64,000 bases of DNA, taken from positions 49,573 through 113,572 of the forward strand of contig JAQTOC010000001.1 of assembly GCA_028713535.1 (NCBI GenBank). The letters are read 5' to 3'. The notes below the pieces were generated by a model that was not told where the DNA came from, searched no databases, and saw nothing but the letters and a program-made list of their open reading frames with translations. The stretch comes from Candidatus Nanoarchaeia archaeon (lineage in GTDB: Archaea; Nanobdellota; Nanobdellia; SCGC-AAA011-G17; JACPNG01). The position numbers and the translations under genes are program-made. Positions 3-29,034 of the stretch are shown piece after piece; position 1 is the first letter of the stretch; each line of letters begins with the position of its first letter.

Positions 3-122
3 ATCAGTAGAGAATTAAATATACCTTGCATTGTTGGAGTGCATGGAATAACGAGTTCGATAAAAGATGGAGATATAATTGAAGTGGATGCAAACAAAGG
101 TATTGTCAGGAAATTAAAATGA
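3..122 (+). CDS. C-terminal fragment (5' partial) of PEP-utilising-enzyme mobile (swivel phospho-His) domain protein, paralog 0
   Basis: Frame-3 translation ...ISRELNIPCIVGVHGITSSIKDGDIIEVDANKGIVRKLK* matches the C-terminal end of the PEP-utiliser domains in the downstream paralogs; stop overlaps next ATG (ATGA). Confidence 0.55.
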   Translation: MSRELNIPCIVGVHGITSSIKDGDIIEVDANKGIVRKLK

Positions 123-3458: not shown

Positions 3459-4274
3459 ATGAGCCTTAAAGAATCTTTAAAAAATAAATTAACCAAGAAA
3501 GAACTTAGTTTAGTTCCAAGGTCTTTTGACCAGATTGGAAACATAGCTATTTTTTCTGAATTTCCTAAAGAATTAAAGAAGAAAGAAAAATTAATTGGAG
3601 AAACTCTAATCAAACTAAATAAAAATCTAAAAACTGCTGCAATCAAATCTGAGAAACATTCAGGAAGATTTAGAACTAAGAAAGTAAGAATTATTGCAGG
3701 AGAAAAAACAAAAGGAACTACACACAAAGAAAGCGGAGTCATTTTAAAGCTTGATGTTGAGAAATGCTATTTTTCACCTAGAACTGGAAGTGAGAGATTA
3801 AGAATAGCTAAACTAGTAAAAAAGAATGAATCTGTTTTGGTGATGTTTTCAGGCATCTCGCCACTGCCTCTTGTCATTTCTAAAAATTCCAAGGCCAAGG
3901 AGATTTATGGAATTGAAATTAATCCTGTTGCACACAAATATGCAGAAGAAAATATTAAATTAAACAAAGTAAAGAATGTTTTCTTGTATAAAGGCGATGT
4001 TAAAAAAATACTGCCTAAATTAAAGAAATTTGACAGAATATTAATGCCACATCCAACAGATGCAGCTTCTTATCTGGACTTAGCATTTAAACACTTAAAG
4101 AAAAATGGAATCTTGCATTTCTATGATTTTCAGGAAGAAGATAATTTTGACAAGGCTGTTGAAAAGATAAAGAAAAAAGCAAAAGGAAAGGTTCTAAGAG
4201 TTGTAAAATGCGGAGACTACGGTCCTAGAATCTACAGAATCTGTGTGGATTTTAGATTTGAGAAATACTTATAA
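3459..4274 (+). CDS. tRNA (m1G37) methyltransferase Trm5 / Taw2-like (Met-10+ family) class I SAM methyltransferase
   Basis: Motifs VLVMFSGISPLPL (SAM motif I), IEINPVA (NPPY-like), C-terminal fold pattern typical of archaeal Trm5/TYW2. Confidence 0.7.
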   Translation: MSLKESLKNKLTKKELSLVPRSFDQIGNIAIFSEFPKELKKKEKLIGETLIKLNKNLKTAAIKSEKHSGRFRTKKVRIIAGEKTKGTTHKESGVILKLDVEKCYFSPRTGSERLRIAKLVKKNESVLVMFSGISPLPLVISKNSKAKEIYGIEINPVAHKYAEENIKLNKVKNVFLYKGDVKKILPKLKKFDRILMPHPTDAASYLDLAFKHLKKNGILHFYDFQEEDNFDKAVEKIKKKAKGKVLRVVKCGDYGPRIYRICVDFRFEKYL

Positions 4275-6353: not shown

Positions 6354-6461
6354 TTTAGCCCGAATCGAATAGGATTAGGATTCTACGCGTTCGAGTTATG
6401 ATACAGATTTAATATTAGAAAACATAGAAAAAGTGGAGGCCAACCCTCCAAGCCATAAAAA

Positions 6462-6567
6462 TTAATGGCTTAAAAACCCTATCCCCCCGAAAACCACAAG
6501 GATGATCATGACACACAGCCATGTAATCCAATAGATTTTCCAAAGGAAGCCTATTAGATCTCCCATT
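6462..6567 (-). CDS. possible 34-aa hydrophobic micro-protein downstream of the ATPase
   Basis: Minus-strand MGDLIGFLWKIYWITWLCVMIILVVFGGIGFLSH; single TM-like; not in ORF track. Confidence 0.15.
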
Positions 6568-6604: not shown

Positions 6605-7924
6605 TTATTTCTCAAAACCAAATTCTTTTTTAGGAGCAATTGCGTGAGGAGCTTCTCCACCATGCCAGGTAAACCTGGGTCTAATCCTTACTGGATACAA
6701 TCTTTCTGAGTTATCATCCAATAAAATTGCTGAGCCAGCCAATCTTGGCAAGTTATTCAAACTTTTTTGCAGATCTGTAATCAAATAAGACTGCATCATT
6801 GAATTAAGGGCATCAATGTCTGGCTTGGCAGTTAGTCTATGACTTAGAACAATATCTGCCTGAGTTATAACATCCTTGTGAATTTCTCCTGGCTGCTGAG
6901 TAGCTAAGACCATTGAGATTCCAGGTTGACGACCTTCTCTTATTAACTGAACTAAGGTATCTGTTGCAGGAGTTTTTCCTTCTTTTGGAAGAAATTCATG
7001 GGCTTCATCAATTAAAACCCAAACCAAGGGCATATCAAGTTTTTTTTCTTCCTCAAATAATCTTGACCTTGTTTGTATGTCTGACAGTTCTTCTTCTTTT
7101 CTTGAGGTCATTCTTTCTTCAAGAAGTTTTTTGCATATTAAGCCAATAACAAGAGATTTTATTCCCCAGCTTCCGGTTCCTTCTTTATAGCATGAAATGT
7201 CAATTATAGAAACTTTTCCTTTTCCAACTATGTTTTTTATTGGAACGCTTTCCTTGTCAAATAGACCCCAGGTCAAGGCTGCCCTAAACCTGTTTTCTGT
7301 TGCGTCCCTTACATTTTGCTCTGAGCGTTTATCTGATTGTGTTCTTGAAATAATATCATCCATCGAATAATCTTTTAGATTTTCCATCAAATCCTGGATA
7401 ACTCTTTCAATCAAAACTCCTATTGGGGAGTTTATATCAACACTGAAAACATTGCACCAGTCTCCTGCTGTCAACTCAGAAGGCTTTAATGCAAATGAAA
7501 AGTCTGCTGGAATTCCTTTTTGCCTGTAATCATTGAAATAACCTTTTGGAGTGTAAATATCAACATTCAGTCCTTTTGGAGAAATGCCCCATTTTTTTAA
7601 CAAATCTTCTTCTTTCTGGTTTGGATATTTCATTGTCCAGAAAATTCCCATTGTGTCAAAGATTAAAACTGATAACCTGTCTTTTATGTCCTTTGGAAGA
7701 TCTGAAACTTCTTCTGCTATTACACCAAGAGAAAAACTTTTTCCAGAGCCTTTTTTTCCAGAAACTAATATTGTATGGGCGCCGTTTACATCTAAATAAA
7801 CATTGTTAGCAAGGGAGGTAACCTCTCCCATCTTTACATATTGTTTTCCGATAAATATTGTTGCTTCTTTCCCATATTTTTTAAGTTCTGGTTCTGATCT
7901 TCCTATTATTATATCCTGGGTCAT
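6605..7924 (-). CDS. HerA/FtsK-superfamily P-loop ATPase (DUF87 'AAA-like' domain)
   Basis: Walker A GKKGSGKS, Walker B VWVLIDEAHEF, ~440 aa; start overlaps the stop of upstream 1450-aa surface protein (ATGA). Confidence 0.7.
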   Translation of the reverse strand: MTQDIIIGRSEPELKKYGKEATIFIGKQYVKMGEVTSLANNVYLDVNGAHTILVSGKKGSGKSFSLGVIAEEVSDLPKDIKDRLSVLIFDTMGIFWTMKYPNQKEEDLLKKWGISPKGLNVDIYTPKGYFNDYRQKGIPADFSFALKPSELTAGDWCNVFSVDINSPIGVLIERVIQDLMENLKDYSMDDIISRTQSDKRSEQNVRDATENRFRAALTWGLFDKESVPIKNIVGKGKVSIIDISCYKEGTGSWGIKSLVIGLICKKLLEERMTSRKEEELSDIQTRSRLFEEEKKLDMPLVWVLIDEAHEFLPKEGKTPATDTLVQLIREGRQPGISMVLATQQPGEIHKDVITQADIVLSHRLTAKPDIDALNSMMQSYLITDLQKSLNNLPRLAGSAILLDDNSERLYPVRIRPRFTWHGGEAPHAIAPKKEFGFEK

Positions 7925-10900
7925 ATTTTGTTTTTCCTTCTCCTGTAAAATCTGTATGCTATGAACAAAATAAATGCCATTGCTACCAATTCAAGCAAGA
8001 ACAATGGAAGGTTTTCTCCTGACAATCCAGTTGGTTTTTGTGCCTGTTCTTTTTCTTGCAAAGTCAAGACTATTTCCTTGCAGCCTTCTATTCCCTGCCT
8101 TGTCAATTCCATTGCCTGGGAGAATCTTCCTGTTGCTAATTCCATGTCTGCCTTGTTTATGTATTCCTGCAATTCCAAACATTCTGGATTTTCATTTAAC
8201 ATGTCTTTTAAGTACCTTAATTTTTCTTTTACTAACTGCTTGTCTTCCAAACCAAACTCAAGAAGGCTTACGAAGAATTTAATCGAGTCTGTTACAGAAG
8301 GATCAGACACTATTGCTTTTACAGTTATGTCTCTTTTTCCTTCTTTTGTATCCTTGTCTGTGATTATCTCCAAATCAACGTCAACTTCTTCTCCAGGGGA
8401 AAGCTTGTCTATTTTGATTTTATTCAAGTTTAGAGTTATGTCTTTTGTTGAAGCAGAAGCCTCAAGATTTATGTCTGACAACAAAACATCGCCTGTGTTT
8501 TTTACTTTGATTGGAGTAATAATTCTTTCTCCAAGGAACAAGGAGACATCTCCAGGATGCAGTATGTCAATTGTCACATATTCTGTTGCGCCTCCACCGC
8601 CTCCTCCTCCGCCACCGCCACCAGCGCTTGGGACTGAGACTGTTGGTAAAACTGCGGAGGTTACGTTTATGCTAAAGTTGTTTGCTGCCACCTCATATTC
8701 TGAATCATTCAAGATTGCCTGAACAATTTCATAGCCAGTCCATCCTGACCTGGGGGTTATTGTTACCATGTTGGAAGTGTTGCTGACAGTTATTGTTATG
8801 TCTGTTGAATTTTTTAATTCCTCGGTTTCATTCATCTGTATAAATGTAAAGTTTAATGTTTGGTTATACCTGGCGTCACCATAATCATAATCCCTGAAAT
8901 AATCATCCAGGTTAAGCAAAGTGTAACTTGTATCCTGGTTAAAGGAAATGTTTGCAATTTCTGCGTAAAATTCAGGAGGGGCATTTACGTTGCTTACTGT
9001 CAAGTTCCAGTACCAAGAAGCCTCGTAAGTTAAATCTGAGATTATTACAGTTACATTATGGGTTCCTTCATCTGTGTAATTTGCATAATAGGTAAAGGCA
9101 TTTGACTGAGTTGATGTTATTGAAGTTACATTTAAAATATTATCAACGTACCAATTATAATACAATGCTTGGCCTGTGTCAGGGTCATTCACATAAACTG
9201 TAAAGGCCTGAGAGGCATTTTCATCTATACCTGCGATGTTTCCAGAAGGAGTTCCAAGCAAGCTTGTTACAGGATCATTCACATCCGAGATATTTATTGT
9301 GAATATTCTTGAATCTTCAAGTCCAAGAGAGTCGTTGACTGTTATGTTAAGGAGCTCAATTCCGGTTTGGCTTGAATTTGGAGTAAATGTTATCTGGCCG
9401 GATGTTATGTTAATTATGAAGTTTGCCCAGGTTGTGTTTGTGTTAAAAGTAAGAGAGCCATTCTGGCCTTCTGGAGAATCTTCTTCATCTGTTGCATTTA
9501 CATCATAAACCAATGCTTCATCCTGCCTTCCTATTATCTGGTCTGTTGAAGTTATGTTTGGCCTGTCATTTACAGCATATATGCTTAAGTTAAATATCCA
9601 TTCATCTGTCAGCCCAGTAGTGTCTCTTACAGTTACATTTATGAAATGATCTCCTGCGAAAGAGTCATTTGTTGGTGTAAATAAAATTACTCCGTTTGAT
9701 GAGCCTATATCAAAGAATGACGAGTTATCCTCCCATGTCAAAACCTCCCATGTGCTGGGAATATTTAAGTCTTCATCTGTTGCATTAAATATATATGACA
9801 AAGTATCGTCTTCATTCACTGTATGATTCTCCCTTGAGGTTATGTTTGGGTTATCATTAACGTTAATAACAGTAAGGTTTACTATGCCTGACACATAATA
9901 ACCAGGAAGGTCTTTCACAGAAAGGTTTATCCAGTTTTCTCCTACAGATGTGTCGTTAGGAGTTATGTTTATCTCTCCTGTTGTTTCGTTTATTGTGATT
10001 ACAGAATCATTTGAGTAGAAGAATAATGCATCATTGTCTGCATCTGTTGCATTTAATGTGAAATTAAAGTAAAATTCAATGTCTTCTGTAAGGCTGAATT
10101 CTGTATTTGGGGTAAACACAGGAGCATTGTTTGCGTAAACTGTGAGATTTATTATTACAGAATCCTCTATTCCAGTTGAATCATTCACTGTTACATTAAT
10201 CCAGTTTTCCCCTACATTGGTCAGGCTTGGGGTGAAAGATGCTATTCCTGTTGATGAGGAGATTGTTATGTAGCTTTCATTTATGCTCCATGTTAAAAAT
10301 TCAGTGGTACCTGGACTGTCTAAGTCACCGTCTGTCGCGTTGAAATCATAATACCAAGTTATTCCTTCATAACCAGTTATGTTTTCTGCTGTTGTTATCA
10401 ATGGAGCGTCATTTACTCCAATGACTGAGAAGTTTATTATTGCTGAATCTATCAATGAGCCATCGCTTACAGTTAAGTTAAGCCTGTGTTCTCCAATATC
10501 AGTATCGGTTGGAGTTACGTTTATGTATCCTGTTGAGTTTATATCCAGCCAGGTTTCATTTAAGGAAAATGTTAATGTGTTTCCATCAACGTCTGTGGCG
10601 TTGACTGTGCAATTAAAATCAACATCTTCTGTCAAAGTTTGGTTATCACATATATAATCAAGAACTGGAGCGTCATTTACATTAGAGATTATAAACCTTA
10701 CAATCTGCGAATAACAGCCGAGAGAATCGTTAATGCTTATGTTTATCTGGTGATCCCCTACTTCTGTGTTTGTAGGAGTGAAGGAAATCAGGCCTGTGGA
10801 TGGATTTATTTCAAAGAATGAAGAATTATCTTCGAAGCTATAAGCGTCGTTTTCTTCATCTGAGCCAGATACGGTGTATGTATAAGCTGTGTCTTCTATT

Positions 10901-12273
10901 AAACTTTGGTCAGGGATATTGCTAAACTTTGGGGTGTCATTCACAGGATAGACGGTTATGTTCAATGTTGCTGAATCTGAGGCTGAATCTGAATCTGAGG
11001 TAATTAAAATTGTGTTTATGCTTCCGGTTTGTGTTTCTGTTGTGCATGTCAGGTTCATTATTCCTGTATGGAAGTCTATGTCAAAACAGCTTAAGGTGGT
11101 TCCTGCAGCATAGGTGTAATTTAAAATGTCATTTGTATCTGGATCTGTTATGTTTTCTGAAAGATTATAAGTACATATCTGGTCTTCGTAACATTCCCAA
11201 GGAGGCTGTATAAATCCGCTAACGTCCTGAGTTATTACTGGAGCTGTATTTGAAATTGTAAATGTGTCATTTGCCTCCAAGGTCGTATAGACTGTATCTA
11301 CACAAGTAGCGTTAAAGTAGAATGTTCCCTTTACATTAAAGGTTCGGTTGTATTCAAATAACTGGGAAAATTCATTGAATACCATTGCTGTTGGGGTGCC
11401 ATAATCTCCTGTCAGGTTAAAATTTACACTACAAGTAGCAGTTGTATCGTTAATTGTTATCTCTCCTGTTGAGTTTGTGTAGTTTGCAAAGAAAAATGCG
11501 TTTGTTCCAGAATACAATGTGAGGGTGTCATTTTCCGGATCTGATGAATCCCAGAGTGTAAGATTGGAAGTATCAGGAAGACCTCCTGCGTATGCTGTAA
11601 AACCATAAACTGTAAATGTAACATAATCTCCATTGACTTCAAATGGAATGTCTGTTTCAACCCACTCATCACACTTAGCCTTGCTAAAATCATAGTTTTG
11701 GCAGTGATAGATTGCGTTTATTTTATCATAAGCTTTTAATGTTAGAGTTGCGTTTTCTATTGAAACTTCCTTGCTTAAAGAAAGAACTTCGGTTTTAATA
11801 AAAGATTCCTGGGGCTGGGCAACTTTTATCTTGAGATCTGGAGGGATTTTCTTTATTCCTCTGATTCTAGCTTTAGGTGTGCTATCTTTAGAATCTTTTT
11901 CCTGGTCTAGGTATAAATCAATCACATTTGTGTCTGCGGTTTTTTCTATGTTGTAACTAAGAGGCTCAGTTGATTCTATCTGTATTGGATCTGTTGCTAT
12001 TGAAAATCCTGTATATGTCTTAAAGAAGAACAAACCCAGCAAGAATATTGCGAGTATGAAAAAGACTTCAAGGCTTGGGAGTTTGTTTTGTACTACATCT
12101 TTTTTTTCATTTTCAACATCGCCAAGATAGATGTTTTTTACTTTTCCATCTGGCCCTCTTACAGATTTATACAGATATGGACCGTAGAGTTTACCACCTT
12201 TTTTTATGTATCTCTTATGAACCATCAACGACCTCTTTTTATGTAGTACAACTAAAATAAAATAGAAATACAA
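7921..12273 (-). CDS. giant (up to 1450 aa) surface protein with cadherin-like repeats, N-terminal signal-anchor and C-terminal TM anchor
   Basis: Repeated (V/I)NDAP/VNDNP/VNDRP cadherin-type motifs; TM LPSLEVFFILAIFLLGLFFF near the N-terminus; Gly12 linker; C-terminal TM LPLFLLELVAMAFILFIAY + RRRKNKI; many N-x-S/T sequons. Alternative start ATG at 12225 (MVHKRY...). Confidence 0.8.
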   Translation of the reverse strand: MYFYFILVVLHKKRSLMVHKRYIKKGGKLYGPYLYKSVRGPDGKVKNIYLGDVENEKKDVVQNKLPSLEVFFILAIFLLGLFFFKTYTGFSIATDPIQIESTEPLSYNIEKTADTNVIDLYLDQEKDSKDSTPKARIRGIKKIPPDLKIKVAQPQESFIKTEVLSLSKEVSIENATLTLKAYDKINAIYHCQNYDFSKAKCDEWVETDIPFEVNGDYVTFTVYGFTAYAGGLPDTSNLTLWDSSDPENDTLTLYSGTNAFFFANYTNSTGEITINDTTATCSVNFNLTGDYGTPTAMVFNEFSQLFEYNRTFNVKGTFYFNATCVDTVYTTLEANDTFTISNTAPVITQDVSGFIQPPWECYEDQICTYNLSENITDPDTNDILNYTYAAGTTLSCFDIDFHTGIMNLTCTTETQTGSINTILITSDSDSASDSATLNITVYPVNDTPKFSNIPDQSLIEDTAYTYTVSGSDEENDAYSFEDNSSFFEINPSTGLISFTPTNTEVGDHQINISINDSLGCYSQIVRFIISNVNDAPVLDYICDNQTLTEDVDFNCTVNATDVDGNTLTFSLNETWLDINSTGYINVTPTDTDIGEHRLNLTVSDGSLIDSAIINFSVIGVNDAPLITTAENITGYEGITWYYDFNATDGDLDSPGTTEFLTWSINESYITISSSTGIASFTPSLTNVGENWINVTVNDSTGIEDSVIINLTVYANNAPVFTPNTEFSLTEDIEFYFNFTLNATDADNDALFFYSNDSVITINETTGEINITPNDTSVGENWINLSVKDLPGYYVSGIVNLTVINVNDNPNITSRENHTVNEDDTLSYIFNATDEDLNIPSTWEVLTWEDNSSFFDIGSSNGVILFTPTNDSFAGDHFINVTVRDTTGLTDEWIFNLSIYAVNDRPNITSTDQIIGRQDEALVYDVNATDEEDSPEGQNGSLTFNTNTTWANFIINITSGQITFTPNSSQTGIELLNITVNDSLGLEDSRIFTINISDVNDPVTSLLGTPSGNIAGIDENASQAFTVYVNDPDTGQALYYNWYVDNILNVTSITSTQSNAFTYYANYTDEGTHNVTVIISDLTYEASWYWNLTVSNVNAPPEFYAEIANISFNQDTSYTLLNLDDYFRDYDYGDARYNQTLNFTFIQMNETEELKNSTDITITVSNTSNMVTITPRSGWTGYEIVQAILNDSEYEVAANNFSINVTSAVLPTVSVPSAGGGGGGGGGGGATEYVTIDILHPGDVSLFLGERIITPIKVKNTGDVLLSDINLEASASTKDITLNLNKIKIDKLSPGEEVDVDLEIITDKDTKEGKRDITVKAIVSDPSVTDSIKFFVSLLEFGLEDKQLVKEKLRYLKDMLNENPECLELQEYINKADMELATGRFSQAMELTRQGIEGCKEIVLTLQEKEQAQKPTGLSGENLPLFLLELVAMAFILFIAYRFYRRRKNKI
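8591..8627. repeat. 37-nt GC-rich segment (poly-Gly codons) identical to 13004..13040
   Basis: cctccaccgcctcctcctccgccaccgccaccagcgc present in both cadherin-like paralogs (41/42 identical with flanks). Confidence 0.85.
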
Positions 12274-12288
12274 GGTTTTTAAACATTT

Positions 12289-14595
12289 CTAAACTTTTTG
12301 GATAAGTTTACTCAGCTTCCTGTTCAGCTTTCTAATCAATCTGAGCGATCTTCTTTTGTATCTGCCTGAAACCCCGCTGTAGAGCATCTCTATCCTGCTG
12401 CAGGTTGTTTTTGCCTTGGCATATTCTTTGTTTCTTGCTGATATAATAGCATTCTTGTAAAGCTCTTTTATTTTCCTGTATCTTTCTTTTTCTGAATTGT
12501 CCCTTATTGCTGTTAATGTTGTTCCTCTTGGTTTTTTCTTTATTATGGTTATTATTGTTATGATTAATACAAGGATTATTAACAAGGCCCACCAGCTATC
12601 TTTTGGGCAACTAAAGATTTCATTCAGGCTTATTTTCCCATCACCGCAACTTGTCAATGTTTTTGGCTTTTGGATTTCAAAACAAGGCTTGCATGCTCCG
12701 CCGCAGTCAATGTCTTCCTCGTTTTGGTTCTTGATTTTATCATCACAGGTTGGGCATGGCTTGCAAATACCACCACAATCTGCCATTATTTCATTCTGGT
12801 TCTTTATGCTGTCAAAGCAGGTTTCTACAGGAACATAAATACACTCCTGTTCCTCTTTTGGCTTGTAAACAGCAGTTCCGCAGTTTTTGAAATCAGAGCA
12901 TCTTCTTGTCTGGAATCCTTTGTAGTAATTTTCTTTTATGTACAGGCCTGAGTTCTGGCAGGATGACCAATCTGAACAGACCCATGTTTCTGCACATCTT
13001 GCACCTCCACCGCCTCCTCCTCCGCCACCGCCACCAGCGCCTCCGGATGGAGTTGTTGTAACATCGTTGACTGTTACTGTCCAGGTTTTATTCACTGTAA
13101 GAATTCCGTCAGTTGCCATTGCCATGATTGTATGAATTCCTTGGGAGTTGTAGTTTGGACTGTAAGAGTACTGGTTATTTGTTTCTCCGCTTTGTGCAGA
13201 ATCATCAAAGTACCATTGGATTGAAGGAGTTGTTCCATCAGGATCACTTGAAGTTATATTAAATTCCTGGGTTGAGCCTTCGTTCATGGAAAATGAGAGA
13301 GTTGTTGGGTAGTAAGTATCTATTACAGGAGCCTGGCTTGCAGCAGTTATTGTAAATGAAATTATTTCTGAATCTTCTGCACCTTCAGTGTCATTGACTG
13401 TTATGTTTATTGAATAGGTTGCTGCACCTGAATAAGTTGCGTTTACTAATGCAGCAGTGTTATTAACAAATGTTAAGTTCATTATTGTATCATTACTAAT
13501 GAATGTTAATGGGTAATTTTCTTCCTCATCTGTTGCATAAACATAAAATTCCAGTGAATTGCCTGATTCAACTGTTTTTGAGCCTATTGAATCAAGAATA
13601 GGGGGATCATTTACATTAATTATTTCAAACAATACAACCTGAGAATCAAGTGCAGAGCCATCTACTACGTAAATTTCAACACTATAATTTCCTACATCAG
13701 AATAAGTTGGAGTAAAAAGAATTATTCCTGTTTCTTCTGCTATCACAAACAAGGAAGTATTGTCATAGAATTTTATTGCATCGTTATCAGGGTCTGTTGC
13801 GTTTACATCATATTCAAAAAGAACGTCTTCATAAAGTTCATCCCCGCTTTCTATTGTGAAGTTTGGGACTTCTGTAAGGGCTGGAGCATCATTTACATTA
13901 GTGACTGTGAAGTTTATTGTTTCTGAATCGTATAAATTAGCACTGTTTGTTACGTTTATTGTTATGTCGTAAGAGCCAACCTCTGAGTTTGTTGGAGTAA
14001 ATGAGATAACTCCGGTTATGGGATTAATTGTAAATATTGTGGAATCTGAAGCATAGGTAAGATCCAACCCGTTTGGATCTGTGGCATTGATTTCAATGTA
14101 ATATTCCTGGTCTTCTGTTGCTGTTAAGTCTCCAATTGGATCAAGGATTGGACTGTTTGAAATTATTTCAAGAATAAATTCTCCATCTATGTAAGTGTTA
14201 TTTGTATCGCATATTGTGTTGTTTGCCCAGATTGTTATTGAATGGTTTCCTTCTTGGCCTGATGCTGGAGTGAATGAGATTTCTCCACTGGTTGGATCAA
14301 TGCCGAACATGGATGAATTATCTGAATAAACTATTGTGGAACCTGCTGAAGCTGAGGTGTTAATATCATAATAAAATGCTGTCCCTACCTCTCCTGACTT
14401 ATTTTCCAATGAAGGGCTGAATGCAGGAAGTGTGGCTATGCATACTCCTACACTTCCAACTGGTTTTCCTGTTATCTGCTGTATAAAATAAGGGCTTTCA
14501 TTGATTATAGTAATTGTTGACAGAATTGTTGTTAGTATAATAGTTACATATATGAAAGCAAGTGTTTTGTTTGAATTCCACCTCATTTTTATCAT
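12289..14595 (-). CDS. 768-aa surface protein: cadherin-like repeats, poly-Gly hinge, Cys-rich stalk, C-terminal TM anchor and basic cytoplasmic tail
   Basis: N-terminal TM/signal; NVNDAPALTE and NVNDPPILD repeats; GGAGGGGGGGGGGGA; ~30 Cys in CxxC-type spacing; TM WWALLIILVLIITIITII + KKKPRG. Confidence 0.8.
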   Translation of the reverse strand: MIKMRWNSNKTLAFIYVTIILTTILSTITIINESPYFIQQITGKPVGSVGVCIATLPAFSPSLENKSGEVGTAFYYDINTSASAGSTIVYSDNSSMFGIDPTSGEISFTPASGQEGNHSITIWANNTICDTNNTYIDGEFILEIISNSPILDPIGDLTATEDQEYYIEINATDPNGLDLTYASDSTIFTINPITGVISFTPTNSEVGSYDITINVTNSANLYDSETINFTVTNVNDAPALTEVPNFTIESGDELYEDVLFEYDVNATDPDNDAIKFYDNTSLFVIAEETGIILFTPTYSDVGNYSVEIYVVDGSALDSQVVLFEIINVNDPPILDSIGSKTVESGNSLEFYVYATDEEENYPLTFISNDTIMNLTFVNNTAALVNATYSGAATYSINITVNDTEGAEDSEIISFTITAASQAPVIDTYYPTTLSFSMNEGSTQEFNITSSDPDGTTPSIQWYFDDSAQSGETNNQYSYSPNYNSQGIHTIMAMATDGILTVNKTWTVTVNDVTTTPSGGAGGGGGGGGGGGARCAETWVCSDWSSCQNSGLYIKENYYKGFQTRRCSDFKNCGTAVYKPKEEQECIYVPVETCFDSIKNQNEIMADCGGICKPCPTCDDKIKNQNEEDIDCGGACKPCFEIQKPKTLTSCGDGKISLNEIFSCPKDSWWALLIILVLIITIITIIKKKPRGTTLTAIRDNSEKERYRKIKELYKNAIISARNKEYAKAKTTCSRIEMLYSGVSGRYKRRSLRLIRKLNRKLSKLIQKV
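13004..13040. repeat. second copy of the 37-nt poly-Gly-coding segment
   Basis: identical to 8591..8627. Confidence 0.85.
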
Positions 14596-14625
14596 AACTT
14601 CATGGATTTAACTTTAAATAGCTTT

Positions 14626-15039
14626 CTAGAATCTAGTAGTTATGATTCTTAATTTAGATTGATAGGTTCCTTTTTCTGCGTTTTCAGGCACGAGAATTTT
14701 AAACTCAAGTTCTTTTAGTTCGTCTTTTTCCATCTTAAAATTGTTTTCGTTTACATAAATCCAGTTTTTCAATGTACCTTTTATTTTTATGTTCACATAG
14801 GCTTTATTGTATTCCTGGTTTGTTATCCTGATGCTTCTTGAACCACTATTTCCAGGAGGGATTGTCCCAAATGTTAAGTATGTGGTGTTTAAATCAAAAC
14901 CAAGATTTTCATTTACGTTTACTTCTATTGGTATCTCTTCAACGTCAAGGACAATATAATAATTGTAAAGAACAACCATAAAAAGAATCGTTGTAGGAAC
15001 TACTGCGATTATTAATGGGATTAGGTTACTTCTTTTCAT
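14626..15039 (-). CDS. small N-terminally anchored secreted protein
   Basis: MKRSNLIPLIIAVVPTTILFMVVLY TM then beta-rich 110 aa; overlaps upstream gene by 14 nt. Confidence 0.45.
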   Translation of the reverse strand: MKRSNLIPLIIAVVPTTILFMVVLYNYYIVLDVEEIPIEVNVNENLGFDLNTTYLTFGTIPPGNSGSRSIRITNQEYNKAYVNIKIKGTLKNWIYVNENNFKMEKDELKELEFKILVPENAEKGTYQSKLRIITTRF

Positions 15040-16135
15040 TTTTGTGTTTTACCATGTTTATAACAAAAAAGGCTATCAGCAAGATTATCACAAATATCAA
15101 AACAAAAGTAGTTATCTTTAATTTTGGATTTATAACTTCCAGCATTATTTCTTTTTCTATTGTTTTTCCATTGTAATTAACAAGAATCTTTGCTGGGTAT
15201 ATGCTTGGTTCATAATCGGTTGAATCAAAGTAAATATTTGCTGTTTTTTCCTCCCAGGAATTAATTGAGACTGGAGGGCCCCTGAAAACAGGAACATATT
15301 CCTTATCTTTTTTTACAAAAAGCTCAAGATAGGCATTTTCTATCTTTGAATTCCAGAGGTTTTTGATTTTAACATTTATTATTGCGGTTGTGTCTTTTTC
15401 TATTTTATTTATTGAAACGTCAACTATTTTTATTATTTCAGCCCATACTTTGAAAGTTGTTTCAGTGCTTTTATGGTTCTGGTCAAAGTAAATTATTGCA
15501 CTTGCCTGATAATCTCCTGGTTTAGAGGTTTGCCAGGAAGTTTTTAGTGTTTTTTCTTCATTAACATTAAGAGCTGTTGAAGGTATTTTTAATTTTGCTA
15601 TCTCTTCGTTTTGGCTTATCATTGAAATTGTTGCTTCAAGGTTTTTAATATTTTCCTTGCCGATGTTTTTTACAACAATCTGGACCGGAATCTGCCTGTT
15701 TATTTCAGAATCCTCTATTTTAATAACGCTTTCAATATATTTTCCGGGGTAAGGAACATAAGCGTAGATTTTTATTTCAACTCCGCCAATAGCTCCAACT
15801 AAACCCTGACCACCCTTGGATTCTAAGATAACAATTGAGTTTTCATTTATTCCTGGAGATAGATTTTCAGAGGAAAAAAGCCTGCATGAGATATCTTCCC
15901 ATGCATGGGGCTCAATCGTTATTTCTTTTTCAATTGTTATTGAATTATTTAACTGGCCTCTTGGCTCTATGAGAAATGTTTTTGTTTCTTCTGCATTGTT
16001 TGACAAACTAAACGTGCATGAAAATTCCTTGTTTGGCTCATAACTAATCTCCAAAGAGGGAGGCTGCACCAATATTGCAAGGGAGGGACAAGAAACAAGA
16101 ACTATCAAAATTATTATCAACCCTCTTTTTTCCAT
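15026..16135 (-). CDS. surface protein, paralog A: signal peptide, beta-sandwich-like repeats, C-terminal TM anchor
   Basis: Start taken at MEKRGLIIILIVLVSCPSLAIL; shares VGAIGG...VPYPGKY and ILVNYNGKTIEK blocks with 17001..18218; C-terminal TM FVLIFVIILLIAFFVI + KHKNEKK. Confidence 0.6.
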   Translation of the reverse strand: MEKRGLIIILIVLVSCPSLAILVQPPSLEISYEPNKEFSCTFSLSNNAEETKTFLIEPRGQLNNSITIEKEITIEPHAWEDISCRLFSSENLSPGINENSIVILESKGGQGLVGAIGGVEIKIYAYVPYPGKYIESVIKIEDSEINRQIPVQIVVKNIGKENIKNLEATISMISQNEEIAKLKIPSTALNVNEEKTLKTSWQTSKPGDYQASAIIYFDQNHKSTETTFKVWAEIIKIVDVSINKIEKDTTAIINVKIKNLWNSKIENAYLELFVKKDKEYVPVFRGPPVSINSWEEKTANIYFDSTDYEPSIYPAKILVNYNGKTIEKEIMLEVINPKLKITTFVLIFVIILLIAFFVINMVKHKNEKK

Positions 16136-16166
16136 AAGATGAAAGAAGCGATTTTGTTTATAAATC

Positions 16167-16793
16167 TTATGAGGCTGTTGCAATAAATGTAAGGGTTCCT
16201 GATTTCTGGCCTGAGAGCTCGTCATCTGGAATTGTGATGTTAATGTCAACTATTACAGAGTCAGAGTCATCTGTGAAGTTTAAAGAACATATGGCCCATT
16301 CTGAAGCTGCATTTGGGACTGGCCTCCAATCTCCAGAACTTAGACCACCAGGATAGCCCACTGAGCAGCCGTTTCCAGGAGCTGAACTTGGATAATTTAA
16401 TTCTACGTGAGTTGTGTTATACAAAAGATGTTTGCTGTTGTCAAATGTTGCTGAGCTGAACAAGCTTTCAGTTTCCTGTATTGAAATATTAATGAGAATT
16501 GAGCCGTCGTTTGTTAGATTGAAGCCACAGGCATAATCTGCTGCACAGGCATCTCCTTCAATGTTTTTTTTCAGATAAGAAACTTTTCCATCCCCTGGAT
16601 TTGAAGAGGTAAAGTTTACATCTGCATTTACAATTGAGATGCCAAGGCTTGAGTTTATTGAAATATTAACTGAACCGGTTGTGTGCCCTGTGATAATGGA
16701 GAGCTTTGGGGAGCTGGCAATGATTCCTGTTATGGAGATTCCAACTGCTAGTATAGCTAACGCCACAAGAAATTTACTGGATGGTTCTTTCAT
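16167..16793 (-). CDS. secreted Ser/Asn-rich protein with signal peptide
   Basis: MKEPSSKFLVALAILAVGISITGIIAS...; 208 aa, no C-terminal TM. Confidence 0.5.
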   Translation of the reverse strand: MKEPSSKFLVALAILAVGISITGIIASSPKLSIITGHTTGSVNISINSSLGISIVNADVNFTSSNPGDGKVSYLKKNIEGDACAADYACGFNLTNDGSILINISIQETESLFSSATFDNSKHLLYNTTHVELNYPSSAPGNGCSVGYPGGLSSGDWRPVPNAASEWAICSLNFTDDSDSVIVDINITIPDDELSGQKSGTLTFIATAS

Positions 16794-16977
16794 TTTTCTC
16801 TTTTGTCTTGTTTATTTCATTCACAGAGACCCCGATTTTTCCTGTAGGAGTTTCAATGGAATCAAATGTTTTTACATTATCCTTGTTTTTGATTGCCATA
16901 AGGGTCCCTGCTGCAGAAATTATAATTAAAACTACAAGGATTATTGCAAGAGTCTTGTTTGAAATCTTTTTTTCCAT
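16774..16977 (-). CDS. small single-TM protein
   Basis: MEKKISNKTLAIILVVLIIISAAGTLMAI...; overlaps next gene by 20 nt. Confidence 0.3.
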   Translation of the reverse strand: MEKKISNKTLAIILVVLIIISAAGTLMAIKNKDNVKTFDSIETPTGKIGVSVNEINKTKEKNERTIQ

Positions 16978-17000
16978 TTTAATTGAATTATTAAGTTAAT

Positions 17001-18218
17001 TTAAATAGTTTTTTCTATTTTGTTTTTTCTCCTTATGTATACAAACCAGGCTATGTTGATTATTATCAGGACAATTACAAGTATTGTCAGTATGGTATTC
17101 CTGCCAAGGCCTGCTGCAGCAATTGCCTCACCAGTTCCTAATGAGGAGAACCTTATTGAGCCGAGTGTAATGTAAGCTTTCATGTTTTTTTCTGTTGTTT
17201 TTCCATTGTAATTAAGTATTATTTTTGCATCATAGGTTCCTTCTTTTACAAATTCAGTGTCCCAGTAAGCCAGCAATTCCTGTTTTGACAAAGGTTCGAA
17301 GTTCACGTTTGCACTCTTGAAGTTTCCGGCTTCGTTTCCATTTTCATCAGTAATAACGACTTGGGCATAAACGTCGTTTACCTTGTCATTCCACTTGTTT
17401 TCTGCTGAGATTGTGAACTTTGCAACCTGGCCGAGCTGGAAGTTCTTGGATTCTATGCTCAATATCTCTATGAAAAGATTTCCAACGTAAAATGTTTTTT
17501 CTGCTCTTGCATACTTGCCGTCATAACTTAAAGTGGCTACTGCGTGATATGCTCCGGGATTTACCTCTGCTTTCCATTGGGAGGTTACTTCTTTCTTGTC
17601 TTTTGGATCTATAGAAATTTCATTTGTTGTTACAGTCGCGATTTTTTCATTTGTTGGCCCTAAAATATCTATTGTTGCCTTTGCCTGATTTATTCTTTCT
17701 GTTCCAAAATTCGATATGGGAATTATGAAATTAACATAGTCATTTACCTGGGCATCTGAAATTTCTAAATCTATCTTTGCATATTTTCCAGGATAGGGCA
17801 CCTTTATCTCTATGATTAATGCAACTGCTGCTGTGGCACCAACAAAAGCCTGGCCTTCTGAATTGGATGGAATCTCCAATGCAATTATTTTTAACTGGTG
17901 AGTTCCCGGCTCTTCTATCTTTTCCGGCAAAGTTAAATCAAACTTAAATTCTTTGGATTCTTCTGCTGATGACAATGAAATAATTGAATCGTACATTGTT
18001 ATTAAGTCACTTAGCTCGGATTTTTCTGCGTATAAGACAACCTGCATGTCTTTCTTTTCATTGTTTAATACCTTGAAACTGAATGTTTCTTTCTTGTTTG
18101 CTTCAAAGTCTGTTGTTATTTTACCAGGAGTTATACCTATTGCTTTTACTTCTACTGAAAATAAAATAGTCAGGATTATCAAAACCATTATTGTTTTTAT
18201 TAAAATATTTTTATTCAT
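17001..18218 (-). CDS. surface protein, paralog B: signal peptide, beta-sandwich-like repeats, C-terminal TM anchor
   Basis: MNKNILIKTIMVLIILTILFSVEVKA signal; VGATAAVALIIEIKVPYPGKY; IILNYNGKTTEK; C-terminal TM ILTILVIVLIIINIAWFVYI + RRKNK. Confidence 0.6.
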   Translation of the reverse strand: MNKNILIKTIMVLIILTILFSVEVKAIGITPGKITTDFEANKKETFSFKVLNNEKKDMQVVLYAEKSELSDLITMYDSIISLSSAEESKEFKFDLTLPEKIEEPGTHQLKIIALEIPSNSEGQAFVGATAAVALIIEIKVPYPGKYAKIDLEISDAQVNDYVNFIIPISNFGTERINQAKATIDILGPTNEKIATVTTNEISIDPKDKKEVTSQWKAEVNPGAYHAVATLSYDGKYARAEKTFYVGNLFIEILSIESKNFQLGQVAKFTISAENKWNDKVNDVYAQVVITDENGNEAGNFKSANVNFEPLSKQELLAYWDTEFVKEGTYDAKIILNYNGKTTEKNMKAYITLGSIRFSSLGTGEAIAAAGLGRNTILTILVIVLIIINIAWFVYIRRKNKIEKTI

Positions 18219-18708
18219 ATTGCTCAGCTTTTACCCTTGTGTCTTTTTTTAATGTTAGAGATTCGTCCATGTCAAGAACTGCCTGACCTGTAATTGATAT
18301 CTTGTTTTTCAGGGATTCTTCTATTGAAACATTTAGTTTTGAATTTCCGTCGTTGGTTACTATGTAGTTTTCTTCTTCCTGTTCTAGTTTTAGAGATACT
18401 TTGCTTTCGATATCAAAATCTGAGGTTTTTGAGGAAAACAAACCAACCACTTTCCAGTAGATTTTTTCTAATGGCAGGTTTTCCTCAGGAACGTATGAAC
18501 AGCATGGAACTTGTTTTTTTATTGGCGAGGTAAACTCTGGATTGTTGTCTATTAAAATTGTGTAAGTCATAGGAATTCCTGTCCATTTGAATTCTGGCTT
18601 TCTTTCGTAAGTTATTTTATCCTGGGTTTTTGGAAGAGGAAACAAAATAGTCAGGATTAGAATTATCAAAATCAAATTCACGATTCCAATTTTTAATATT
18701 GTTTTCAT
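18211..18708 (-). CDS. small N-terminally anchored protein
   Basis: ATG at 18708 (MKTILKIGIVNLILIILILTILFPL) overlaps stop of upstream gene as ATGA; ORF-track start at 18720 is a GTG. Confidence 0.45.
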   Translation of the reverse strand: MKTILKIGIVNLILIILILTILFPLPKTQDKITYERKPEFKWTGIPMTYTILIDNNPEFTSPIKKQVPCCSYVPEENLPLEKIYWKVVGLFSSKTSDFDIESKVSLKLEQEEENYIVTNDGNSKLNVSIEESLKNKISITGQAVLDMDESLTLKKDTRVKAEQYE

Positions 18709-19943
18709 GCTGAAACCCACCCTGTAAATACTATGTATGCAATCTTGTCTCCTGCAGGCTCATCTAAAGGAACTTGGACTAGGAAATCTATTTCTGCTTC
18801 GTCATTTGTATCAGAATAATTCAGTTGGGAGATTGCAGTTTCATTGGATATAGGAACGTTTTGCCAGTCTAATTGAGAGGAACCGCCATTAAATGAAAGC
18901 TCTTCTCCTGCTTTTGTGTCTATCTTGTACTGAAAATAAGACGTTGGAGATTGCTTTGAGGTCCACAATCCAGTTGAGCCTTCTCCTAATGATATGTTAA
19001 CATCCACCAATGTGTTTCCATCATTTCTTATTACCAATGGAACTGGAGAGTCCTCTGTTGTATTTGATACATCTCCTACGTTAAGAGTTTCAAAGTCTGT
19101 TGAGGAGGTTGGAAGTGAGAGTATGACCTGCGAGGGAATTAAGAAAGTCCTGTTCTCTGACCAACCACCATATTCAATCCCATCAAAAGCAGACACTCTC
19201 CAAGTATAATTAACATCAACATCAAATTCTATCAAAGAAGTGTATTTTGTTGGGGTTGCTATTTCTGCTATTCCTGTTACATTTATTACAGGACTCTGGA
19301 AATCTGATGAAACTTCATCAACTTGGATAAAATATGTTATTGGATCTCCGTCTGGGTCTGTTGTGTTTGACCATTCAAAAGTTATTGTTTTATCCACTAT
19401 GGTTACATTTCCGTTTTCTGGAAGATATAAATCAACAACGTTTGGAGCATTATTTCCTGTATTAAATGAGCCTGATTCTAAGTCAACCAAGTTTGTTGAG
19501 TCTCTTGCAGTTATGTTCCATGTATACACTCCTGACAAGTCTGCTTTTATTGTTGTTGAGTTCCAGGTTATTCCGTCGAAGGTTGCATTGATATTGTCTA
19601 CAATTGCTGTTCCGTTTGGAAGAACTATTGACATGTTTACTTCAAGAAGATTACTATCTGCATCTGAAACTGTTGCAGTAAGATAAAATTCTATGTTTCT
19701 TGTTATTGTTTCTGGAATGGTTTTATTGTCTGTTATTGAAGGAGAATTGTCTGATTCTGCAAAGAAAAACCCTAGAGAATTCTGGTAGCTTGCTGATGAT
19801 GAATTCCCACTTATTGTTCCTATGAGCATGTTGTTTTGATAGCTTGCTGATGATGAATTTGTTCCTCCTGATGAAATAGTTGTTGTGTTTGAATTATAAC
19901 TATCTGAGCCAGTATTTGCTGCAATGGTTACTGTTGCAAGCAA
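18705..19943 (-). CDS. Ser/Thr/Asn-rich surface protein; either separate (TTG start) or the frameshifted C-terminal continuation of the 1127-aa protein
   Basis: First in-frame start is TTG at 19943; no ATG; N-terminus ILLATVTIAANTG looks like the tail of a hydrophobic segment; frame open upstream to 19998. Confidence 0.5.
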   Translation of the reverse strand: MLATVTIAANTGSDSYNSNTTTISSGGTNSSSASYQNNMLIGTISGNSSSASYQNSLGFFFAESDNSPSITDNKTIPETITRNIEFYLTATVSDADSNLLEVNMSIVLPNGTAIVDNINATFDGITWNSTTIKADLSGVYTWNITARDSTNLVDLESGSFNTGNNAPNVVDLYLPENGNVTIVDKTITFEWSNTTDPDGDPITYFIQVDEVSSDFQSPVINVTGIAEIATPTKYTSLIEFDVDVNYTWRVSAFDGIEYGGWSENRTFLIPSQVILSLPTSSTDFETLNVGDVSNTTEDSPVPLVIRNDGNTLVDVNISLGEGSTGLWTSKQSPTSYFQYKIDTKAGEELSFNGGSSQLDWQNVPISNETAISQLNYSDTNDEAEIDFLVQVPLDEPAGDKIAYIVFTGWVSA

Positions 19944-19954
19944 GATTAAAAATA

Positions 19955-22900
19955 TTACATAATCTGTGAGGTTTCGTTTAATTTTACTTCGCCTCCTTTA
20001 TTTATTGTAATGTACTGGCCTAGATCTGTAAAATTAAAGGATGAATTTGTCAGGTATAACTTCCCTGCGTCCTGAATTGTTAGGTTATACAAGAAATTAT
20101 AGGTTTTTTCTATCCAATGGCAGGTTGTATTTAAAAACCAGTTTGAGGCTGGAGGAGTACAAAGATCGATGTTTATAGACTCAACTTCTGTGGAGTTTAG
20201 GTAAACACTGTTGTAAATTATTTCTATGAACAAATCTTTTAGTCCTGATGTTTGAATATTTGGAGTTGTTACATTTGCTTCCCATGCAGTACCGTTATAT
20301 GCAACTTGTTCCTCTGTGAGGTTTGAACAATTTCCTGCTGAGCAGGCATCACAATTTAACCCATAACCACATCCTGCACAACTTCCTATTGCATCGCATG
20401 AAGGATTGGTTTCACTACATCCACATGTAGAGGAACAAGTTCCTGCCTGACAGACATAACTTGTTGTTCCATAACAATTTGCTGCATCCCAGGAACATCC
20501 GCATGTAGAGCAGTCTCCTTGACTTTGTCCGGTACAGGAAGCTGGAGATCCATCGCATCCAGACCAGGTGCAACCCTGAGCTACACATGTTTCTGAAGTT
20601 GATTTGGTAGCACATGCAGAAGGAGTTCCTGTACAGGCATAAACTGCGGTACAATATGTACTACAGCTAAGACAGTTGGCTTCTGTAGAACCTGCACAGA
20701 CAGCGGTACCACCTATACATCCGCCTGGGAGAGGTTCTAGGGTACAACCCTGAGTACTACAACCAGTACATGATGTTCTTGGAATACTCTCACATTCTCC
20801 TTCACCAGTACAACTTGAATATGTCCAGTCACATCCAAAGCTTTCACATGTAGATTGACCTGCTCCTGTGTGAGTTGAACAGGCAGCAGGTGCTCCTTCA
20901 CATCCATCCCAGGTACATCCACAGGTTTCACAATTTGTTTGGCTTGAATCATGAGTATCACATACATCTGGATCTCCTGCACCAGCATCATAACAATTTG
21001 CAACATCCCAAGAGCATCCACAAGAAACGCAACTACCTACGCCATAAGTTGCACACGCAGATGCTGAACCACTACAACCATAAGCTGTGTAATTACATTG
21101 ACTGCATTCATTACAGTTTTTAGTTTCGTTTGATGCTGTACAGTTTAAAGTTCCTGCACATGAATTTGTTTCTGCTATTGTTGCATCTATTCCATCGATG
21201 GTTGCGTTTGTCAGATTTACTCCAGATGTTATTTCTGTTAGATTATAAACATTAAAGAATATTGAAATAATTTCATATGCTGTTGCATTTCTTACAAGTT
21301 CTGTTGTTGGATTCAGGGCAGTTATGTTTGGTTTTTCATAAACTGTGAATGTAACTGAACTTAAATTTTCTAGTCCATCTGTTCCGTTGCTGTAAACAAA
21401 ATAGGTCTGGCTTCCAAGGCTTGGAGACAGACCTGTCAAGTTAGTTCCGCATTCAATTGTTGTATTAATATCTCCGATATTTAATGAATACCAACAAGTA
21501 TCGAGAGCTTCTGTGGTATTTGTAACTGTGTAATTCAGATCGGTAACTTCGCCTTCAACGTACGATGTATTTTCTGGATATGCTATTGCTATATCTGGGG
21601 GAAAATCTGTTATTGTTATGCAATTTCCATCCCATGGAGCCCCGTTGTAATCATATAATTCAAACCATCCTGCAGTATCATTCATTATAGTAGCAATAAA
21701 AGCATCTTTACATAAAACTCCATAGGTATTTGTATCAAATGCTCCTTCCCAAGTTTGGTGGGGAGCATCCAAATCTACAATTCCAGCATCAGATAAACTA
21801 ATGTTTACTACGTTATTAAATGCTGAACCATCTTCAACAAAATCAAAAATAAATATAGTTGAATTACTTCCACCTGTAGTGGCAAAAGTTGTTGCATTTA
21901 ATCTTACAATGGCTATCCCAGTTCTTTTTCCTAATTCCCCTGGTGGCAATGAATAAGGAGTAGAAGCAACGGCTGTTGCATCACTGTGGTTTGCGCTTGC
22001 CAGATAATAATTGGCCTGAGTTGCAGCACTTGTATAATCATAATAATTGACCATGTAATAGTAATTGTTCATTACTGCGACCCTAACATTTCCAGCTGCT
22101 CCGGCACCAACGTCTACTACATAGGAAGATGATCCTTGGTTGTATTCTGTTCTTGTTTTAACTATAATATCATCAAGGTTGTTATCATAGTAACTCTGGA
22201 CTACATTAATCCTGCCTACTGCACCACCATCTTTCATACAACAATCCCCGTGAACCTGAGAGTTTTCATCTCCAGTACTTTGTATCGCACTTATATTTGA
22301 ATTAGCGAATGTGACGGTGTTAGTGCCAGTATATAAAAATCCCCTTGCCCTAATCATATTATCATTGTTATTTATCCATTCAATTACAAAATCTGTGGAG
22401 TTAACAACAACTATATTATTGCTTCTATCATATAATCCTGTAGTTGTATCAGCAGTAGCTCCATTTAATTTTGTTCCAGAAGAAGAACCCCCGTTTAACA
22501 TTCCTGCAATATCAAATATCTCAAAATCTATTTGAGTAGCATTTCCATTTTGTCCAACTACAACAAAGGACGTATCATTTAATCCACCAATATCAACTGG
22601 ATGGGAAGTACATTGTGCTCCTGTTGTGGAAAATCCAAATGTTGTTTCCCATGTAGAACCAATCTGAGTTCCGTTAACATCAAATACTGCAATGTGATAA
22701 ATATTATCTATATCATTACACCATGCCATTGCAACATAAGAATTGTTTAAGATTGTGACTGAGGCCTGGGTATCTGTATTTGTTGCTGTGGTGAATATGG
22801 CTGTTCCAAACCCAATCAGAACTTTTTGTTCTGGGATTACCTCATCAACATGGACTTCTATGGAACTTTCCTCCAGGAAGTTTATCTGGGAGATATTTGT

Positions 22901-23338: not shown

Positions 23339-23339
23339 T

Positions 23340-29010: not shown

Positions 29011-29034
29011 TATTAAAGTTATTGTTCTTTATTC

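Follow-up and report, generated by a model that had tools for sequence, protein, structure and literature searches.

Results

A short ATPase gene overlaps the end of a surface-protein gene

The window, meaning the whole stretch of DNA analysed, is 64 kb long. On its minus strand, at 6605..7924, an ATG-initiated coding sequence specifies a 439-aa short HerA-like (DUF87) ATPase, the local ortholog of a DPANN-wide family. When all reading-frame segments of at least 70 aa in the window were searched with the family HMM, the ORF at 6605-7924 was the single match. Scanning the window for the pattern G....GK[ST] turned up a single further match; it lies in a plus-strand ORF that runs antisense to the neighboring giant gene.

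That giant gene lies directly upstream on the same strand. A first-pass annotation of this DNA had reported that the ATPase start codon overlaps the stop codon of a cadherin-like giant protein, and the overlap is real: the ATG (7924-7922) and the TGA (7923-7921) share an ATGA at 7921..7924. The giant ORF is listed as 1450 aa from a TTG (7921..12273, minus strand). A start at the ATG at 12225, which follows AAGAGGT, appears more likely, because the resulting 1434 aa fit the 1435-aa orthologs in two close relatives (L001 and L003). Its make-up is typical for a surface protein of archaea. The protein carries an N-terminal signal anchor, cadherin/Big_9-type repeats (profile matches to Big_9, Cadherin_4, He_PIG and tandem-95) and 71 NxS/T sequons. 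Its C-terminal module consists of a poly-G tract, a CARDB-like domain and a helical domain containing 'NPECLELQE', followed by a transmembrane segment and a basic tail, RRRKNKI. The purine-rich stretch AGGAGAAGGAAAAAC (7925..7945, minus strand), immediately ahead of the ATPase ATG, resembles a Shine-Dalgarno site, but it encodes the RRRKN tail and is simply the codons for those residues.

Further upstream, still on the minus strand (12289..27302), is an array of about nine secreted or membrane-anchored proteins of 768, 137, 407, 208, 405, 169, 412, 1127 and 1320 aa. No second NTPase was found in this surface-protein array of ∼20 kb.

Downstream of the ATPase gene is a hydrophobic, 34-aa minus-strand micro-ORF (6462..6566). 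It had been flagged in the first-pass annotation and does exist, but neither L001 nor L003 conserves it, and judging from these comparisons it is probably no gene, or a strain-specific one. We considered it as a membrane partner of the ATPase and rejected it, since even relatives with 83–85% identical ATPases do not conserve it. Past the micro-ORF, a terminator-like hairpin followed by a T-run (6434..6450, minus strand) probably closes the transcription unit on its 3' side. A Trm5/TYW2 methyltransferase gene on the plus strand (3459..4274), ∼2.3 kb from the ATPase gene, is its ancestral convergent downstream neighbor.

The ATPase neighbors in the window are thus surface proteins, NUDIX, MazG and Trm5. 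The window is part of a DPANN archaeal chromosome, and elsewhere it holds a ribosomal-protein/SecY cluster, Topo VI, a fused primase, aminoacyl-tRNA synthetases and three tRNAs. The scanned ORFs of the window included no gene for NurA, Mre11 or Rad50, as the first-pass annotation had stated for the vicinity of the ATPase.

The ATPase is a soluble, short member of the FtsK-HerA superfamily

The earlier assignment to the HerA/FtsK superfamily (DUF87) was confirmed. Walker A, GKKGSGKS, spans aa 56-63 (7736..7759) and Walker B, VWVLIDEAHEF, spans aa 301-311 (6992..7024). A third motif, REGRQPGISMVLATQQPGE (aa 329-347, 6890..6940), is family-invariant, with invariant columns running from R329 to G346; going by known motifs, we take it as the counterpart of the segment that holds the arginine finger and sensor in HerA/FtsK ATPases. 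All these features lie on the minus strand. Pfam matched the protein to DUF87 at 48 bits (cut-off 23.2) and, weakly, to HerA_C at 24.9 bits (cut-off 22). In a Foldseek search with the predicted monomer the top matches were all HerA-type (4d2i, E 4e-16); the predicted fold also matches VirB4 and FtsK. A sequence search of the PDB returned HerA-type chains only. With Walker A, Walker B and its catalytic Glu, an arginine-finger/sensor segment and a RecA-like fold, the protein is one of the P-loop ATPases that make up the FtsK-HerA superfamily.

Some 50 residues come before Walker A, and the predicted monomer shows just three short strands ahead of the core. The last 17 residues are disordered. 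A C-terminal membrane-interaction region had been proposed as a feature to look for, but neither a transmembrane segment (maximum 19-residue hydropathy 1.02) nor an amphipathic membrane region was found anywhere in the protein. Pfam and hydropathy likewise revealed no FHA domain and no membrane-binding segment.

In an alignment of 26 family members, the window ATPase is 57–85% identical to the other 25 and has every motif and invariant column; its score against the family HMM is 788 bits. The family is marked by the invariant motifs DTMGIFWTM, REGRQPG, TQQPGE and a C-terminal WHGGE, by a length of ∼440 aa and by Trm5/FEN1 nearby; the window member has the motifs and the length, with Trm5 downstream.

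An abundant and unnamed DPANN family

The ATPase is a vertically inherited ortholog conserved across Nanoarchaeia/Woesearchaeota-type DPANN archaea. We counted more than 5,800 homologs of ∼440 aa with 55–65% identity in Woesearchaeota, Nanoarchaeota and Pacearchaeota MAGs. Among the matches listed, at least 590 stretches in a genome scan and at least 545 in a metagenome scan encode a relative, and a profile search of 1.84 billion cluster representatives gave 362 clusters below 1e-30. Relatives with a named source belong to Aenigmarchaeota, Diapherotrites, Nitrososphaeria and Lokiarchaeota, and Asgard archaea have fused forms.

Inteins interrupt ∼20 of the best 150 cluster representatives and occupy three sites. 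Two different inteins insert within Walker A, and a third insertion site follows the DE of Walker B. Inteins in Walker motifs are a pattern typical of essential ATPases that handle nucleic acids.

Longer, distant relatives are fused to winged-helix (wHTH: TrmB/MarR/ArsR), SAP, DUF835 or FHA domains, and no membrane or secretion domain was seen among these fusions. DUF835 has been described only as the output domain of archaeal response regulators and so gives no clue to function.

Databases annotate the family just as 'DUF87 domain-containing protein' or 'ATP-binding protein'; it is unnamed. Our literature search on HerA, NurA or DUF87 in DPANN archaea found no paper describing a short HerA-like ATPase family, and a cryo-ET paper on DPANN archaea does not mention such ATPases.

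The usual surroundings are replication genes

We called ORFs at 169 loci encoding the ATPase: 83 from genomes, 80 from metagenomes and six more from the closest relatives. Neighbors were clustered for the 83 genome loci, with recurrent clusters scanned against Pfam; for the 80 metagenome loci the directly upstream gene alone was recorded.

The ancestral order reads TBP, IleRS, RFC, RFC, HtpX (minus), ATPase (plus), Trm5 (minus), x, FEN1 (minus), PD-(D/E)XK, PolB, MetAP, Cdc48. The ATPase often also has DnaG, Topo VI and an SSB-like OB-fold gene in its vicinity. Within 10 kb there is at least one replication gene at 63 of the 83 genome loci and at least two at 43. These neighbors are mostly on the opposite strand, so the association is one of conserved gene order rather than of an operon.

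The same-strand gene upstream varies, and may encode an SSB-like OB-fold protein, a primase, a Xer-type recombinase, a small protein with three transmembrane segments, or others. A Xer-type tyrosine recombinase gene is directly upstream, on the same strand, at three loci (L166, L117 and L129), and the small three-segment membrane protein takes this position in one other subclade (L023, L034, L064, L103 and L108). Within one subclade, the ATPase gene is followed in 24 of 25 cases by a same-strand gene for a 100-aa protein, for which Pfam gave no informative match. One relative, P0146 (423 aa), is encoded after PglZ and a BrxC-like ATPase of 1344 aa in a BREX/MADS-like cluster adjoined by AddAB-like genes.

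A TATA-like hexamer is present between -42 and -22 in 103 of 146 orthologs, with a sharp histogram peak at -30 to -26. Such an element ∼28 nt before the ATG implies a leaderless mRNA, and to judge from the upstream sequences the ATPase gene usually forms its own transcription unit. Unlike most orthologs, the window gene has no TATA-like hexamer at -30, and neither it nor L025 has one anywhere between -42 and -22.

Coupling to surface proteins recurs but is rare

Surface-protein synteny in relatives had been offered as one test of a functional connection, with its absence counting against one. At ∼160 of the 169 loci no surface protein is upstream of the ATPase, which is equally conserved there. 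The ATGA coupling to a giant surface protein is kept at seven loci: the window, L001, L002, L003, L165, L167 and L025. ATPase identity to the window copy is 83–85% for L001, L002 and L003, 64–66% for L165 and L167 (proteins P0004 and P0005) and 59% for L025. An NJ tree places P0004, P0005, P0012 and P0008 with the window clade, on weak support, and L025 elsewhere; P0012 and P0008 do not have the surface-protein arrangement despite this grouping. The NJ trees were poorly resolved (bootstrap 14/50 for one tested clade), and by these sequence comparisons the seven coupled loci appear to span two or three lineages.

All coupled upstream proteins have the C-terminal module in common, at 30–78% identity to the window copy. 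At L138, a module-bearing protein is encoded 1.6 kb upstream of the ATPase. Of all proteins called at these loci, the only ones with the module are encoded upstream of the ATPase and on its strand. Such consistent placement exceeds a simple random-placement expectation.

We examined whether a coupled copy might be a specialized paralog and rejected the idea. Trm5 is kept downstream at every coupled locus that reaches so far, namely the window, L003, L025, L165 and L167, with FEN1 also kept in the four relatives, so the coupled copies are orthologs at the ancestral site.

We also sought the module away from the ATPase. A profile built from the trimmed seven-sequence alignment matched 12 database proteins, short fragments; a query that retained the poly-G tract gave zero matches, probably because low-complexity words dominated. 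Four other module proteins could be placed on contigs, and the ATPase was adjacent to none of them. The gene after the module protein encodes a MoxR AAA ATPase in one case and is on the opposite strand in three. The module is therefore better described as a general anchor domain with no dedicated ATPase partner.

Comparison with known translocases

Archaeal HerA (S. solfataricus 4D2I, T. kodakarensis 9X1L) is the nearest known system, sharing with the window ATPase the Walker A and B motifs, an 'EGR...ATQ.P' segment and solubility. Canonical HerA, however, begins with a HAS barrel of roughly 100 residues, where the window ATPase has ∼50 residues and no match to PF09378 at E <= 0.01. Its scores against the HerA equivalog models are far below cut-off, at 41.1 bits for NF040937 (cut-off 800) and 35.7 for NF040819 (cut-off 970). 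Canonical HerA is partnered by NurA, often along with Mre11 and Rad50, none of which is encoded in the neighborhood of the ATPase, and the window protein has invariant motifs of its own, DTMGIFWTM and the C-terminal WHGGE. The earlier view that this is not the canonical, NurA-linked HerA thus held up. The ATPase is a HerA-type variant: short, with no HAS barrel and no nuclease partner in the neighborhood.

FtsK/SpoIIIE belongs to the same superfamily, and we propose a like mode of action, a hexameric pump for double-stranded DNA. The upstream Xer genes at three loci recall FtsK-XerCD. Yet the window ATPase has neither the N-terminal membrane domain nor the gamma (KOPS-reading) domain of FtsK, and its Pfam FtsK_SpoIIIE score of 19 bits is under the cut-off of 24. 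It also differs from VirB4/TraC, CedB/CedD and EssC/EccC in having no transmembrane segments, FHA domains or tandem ATPase domains. Scores against CedB (15.7 bits), CedD (23) and EssC (23) compare with cut-offs of 600–780, and TraB too scored below the HerA equivalogs. Partner genes of T4SS, Ced and T7SS are absent near the ATPase, and synteny with membrane proteins is not conserved.

Among defense proteins, mad8 of MADS is similarly short, and its profile matches over the full length (68.9 bits), but the other mad genes are absent. The MADS model makes mad6 and mad7 mandatory (bioRxiv 10.1101/2023.03.30.534895), and these two do not co-occur at the window locus. Unlike defense HerA-like ATPases, the window ATPase is core, syntenic and vertically inherited, with no defense island around it. 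By its sequence, then, the protein is a soluble, short HerA-type ATPase with intact catalytic motifs that falls outside canonical HerA, FtsK, VirB4, CedB and EssC.

Discussion

On balance we think it probable that the ATPase is a DNA-acting HerA-like translocase, the product of a core DPANN gene that a surface-protein operon has captured as its last gene. It likely acts in DNA translocation or unwinding during replication, repair or segregation, in the manner of HerA or FtsK, rather than in protein transport. We base this role on the fold, on where the inteins insert, on fusions to DNA-binding domains and on neighborhoods with replication, Xer, SSB or AddAB-like genes. The protein would assemble as a hexamer and use ATP to move along, or pump, double-stranded DNA.

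The capture can be pictured as follows. A surface-protein array would have been placed into the intergenic region between the divergent HtpX and ATPase genes, where it would have replaced the ATPase's own promoter. Expression would then probably depend on read-through and on termination-reinitiation from the last surface-protein gene. With its own promoter lost, selection on ATPase expression alone would hold the arrangement in place, with no functional link to the surface protein.

The first-pass annotation had instead suggested a secretion, assembly or translocation motor. In the form that we weighed, the ATPase would be a cytoplasmic motor for export, insertion, anchoring or turnover of the giant surface protein in the coupled lineages, or, as a variant, would serve contact-dependent DNA uptake at the site of host attachment. 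The ATGA overlap recurs at seven loci from two or three lineages, each time with a protein that has the shared C-terminal module, including between loci whose ATPases are just 64–66% identical (window clade versus P0004/P0005) and again in the non-sister L025; the ATPase is the sole NTPase of its 20-kb surface cluster; and another subclade has the small three-segment membrane protein directly upstream. Superfamily members such as EssC/EccC do export proteins, and a motor working in trans is compatible with the synteny, since the ATPase is probably in all these genomes. Against such a role, the ATPase is equally conserved at the ∼160 of 169 loci where the arrangement is missing, and there the gene stands alone in an island of replication genes. 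It has no transmembrane, FHA or membrane-binding segment, the coupled copy sits at the ancestral chromosomal position, relatives are fused to DNA-binding rather than secretion domains, and none of the four other module proteins is beside an ATPase of this family. We therefore do not uphold the secretion-motor reading. We consider a surface-linked function unlikely; the weight it retains comes from an arrangement that is repeated across deep divergences and each time on one side.

A different doubt concerns how far the protein is from HerA itself. It could be the lineage's true HerA, resecting double-strand breaks with a NurA and Mre11-Rad50 encoded elsewhere; many mesophilic archaea have herA and nurA unlinked, structure and HMM searches both matched HerA proteins best, and the surroundings are rich in DNA metabolism genes. 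The equivalog scores of 36–41 bits against cut-offs of 800–970, the ∼50 residues ahead of Walker A with no Pfam HAS-barrel match, and the absence of NurA, Mre11 and Rad50 from the window and from the Pfam-scanned recurrent neighbors of the 83 genome loci speak against this identity, and the one recurrent nuclease, a weak PD-(D/E)XK match, is non-adjacent. We doubt that it is correct. A defense ATPase (mad8-like as in MADS, Sir2-HerA-like or DndH-like) or the ATPase of a virus or mobile element seems highly improbable. Here the best PADLOC match was mad8, P0146 follows PglZ and the BrxC-like ATPase, and PHROG terminase and FtsK-like profiles matched at 37–59 bits. The gene, however, is single-copy and keeps its position beside housekeeping genes in hundreds of species at 55–65% identity, which is not a patchy distribution, and this part of the window has no mad, Sir2, DUF4297 or Dnd partner and no integrase. 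Nearer to the DNA-acting translocase that we favor is a distinctly unlikely version in which the intein-rich ATPase would be the chromosome-handling motor of these reduced archaea, either working FtsK-like with Xer in recombination and segregation or pumping DNA into the cell, and in the coupled lineages would be recruited to the basic cytoplasmic tail of the giant surface protein, itself of a host-adhesion type. If true, tail recruitment would tie cell-cell contact physically to DNA translocation.

Read as a captured core translocase, the locus illustrates how a housekeeping gene can lose its leaderless promoter and end up in translational coupling with an operon unrelated to it. It removes a tempting inference of a secretion motor from operon position, and is a caution for guilt-by-association annotation. 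The ATPase family is among the most conserved uncharacterized protein families of DPANN archaea, with hundreds of species, replisome neighbors and repeated intein invasion. To our knowledge, very few DNA segregation or repair motors are recognizable in these archaea. This core HerA-like translocase is a concrete candidate for such a motor.

Surface-protein array and a shared anchoring module

The giant surface protein is accompanied by a 15-kb array (window 12289-27302, minus strand) in which nine more secreted or membrane-anchored proteins are all encoded on its strand. Two of them are WxLIP/CARDB-like paralogs of 405 and 407 aa, each with a signal peptide, a C-terminal transmembrane (TM) segment and a basic tail. 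The array also holds two giant proteins, 1127 and 1320 aa long, for which Pfam gave hardly any matches. The giant protein itself starts with the peptide MVHKRYIKKGGKLYGPYLYKSVRGPDGKVKNIY (window 12150-12225, minus strand), a basic, cytoplasmic stretch that precedes the signal anchor. This peptide is conserved in the L001 and L003 orthologs, and among all loci examined the motif was limited to these three orthologous giant proteins.

The C-terminal anchoring module of the giant protein (window 7921-8650, minus strand) recurs in DPANN surface proteins, at loci L025, L138, L165, L167 and L171-L174. It runs from a poly-G linker through a CARDB-like beta domain and a helical domain, in which an NPECLELxE motif is invariant and two cysteines are conserved, to a TM segment and finally a basic tail. 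No Pfam family corresponds to this module. At L171 the module carrier is followed by a gene for a MoxR-type AAA ATPase.

Other genes of the window

Divergent from the surface-protein array are two adjacent plus-strand genes (window 28030-31281) for proteins of 326 and 748 aa, neither of which had a Pfam match even at E 0.05. A single 427-aa protein (window 31278-32561, minus strand) appears to be a fused PriS-PriL primase, as it matches the families of both the small and the large primase subunit. Three plus-strand genes (window 119-1186, 1200-2492 and 61745-63196) encode proteins whose sole Pfam match is a C-terminal PEP-utilising 'mobile' domain, leaving N-terminal regions of 280-400 residues with no Pfam match.

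Inteins in the ATPase family

Among the 150 best cluster representatives of the HerA-like ATPase family, about 20 contain inteins (proteins P0121-P0148 and others), some with LAGLIDADG endonucleases, and a few of the proteins have two inteins apiece. Three insertion sites were found: GKRG/SGKS, cut after GKRG; GSGK/S, cut after GSGK; and a site after the DE of Walker B. The window copy, in which the equivalent positions are at nt about 7736-7750 and about 7004, has no intein. Tandem duplication of the ATPase was noted once, for P0134.

Genes adjoining the ATPase in other loci

A highly conserved protein of ~100 aa, absent from the window, occurs 25 times within one subclade, and in 24 of these cases its gene comes immediately after that of the ATPase, in the same orientation (loci L045, L052, L054, L056, L062, L070, L078, L081, L107, L112, L113, L115, L116, L125 and L128). 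Its conserved sequence, FSKSFPKT...LFEKRASH.VYWKE.KAKEKFD, had no informative match in Pfam. Another subclade (L023, L034, L064, L103 and L108) has, directly upstream on the same strand, a small protein of ~120 aa with three TM segments and no Pfam match. The replication island, the conserved neighborhood of the ATPase, repeatedly includes a ~217-aa protein with a weak PD-(D/E)XK / Cas4-like nuclease match (L014:14113-14766 and 19 other loci), encoded in the interval from FEN1 to PolB, some genes downstream of the ATPase.

The 423-aa relative P0146 is the last gene of a cluster (L083:1-9272) that also encodes a PglZ-like protein, two ~260-aa proteins and a 1344-aa BrxC-like P-loop protein, and that adjoins AddAB-like helicase-nuclease genes and a UDG gene. 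This may be a BREX/MADS-like defence cluster.

Three loci have a gene for a Xer-type tyrosine recombinase immediately 5' of the ATPase gene and in the same orientation (L166:983-1801, L117:1-432 and L129:1-846, with gaps of 1, 12 and -17 nt, respectively), an arrangement that recalls the bacterial FtsK-XerCD partnership.
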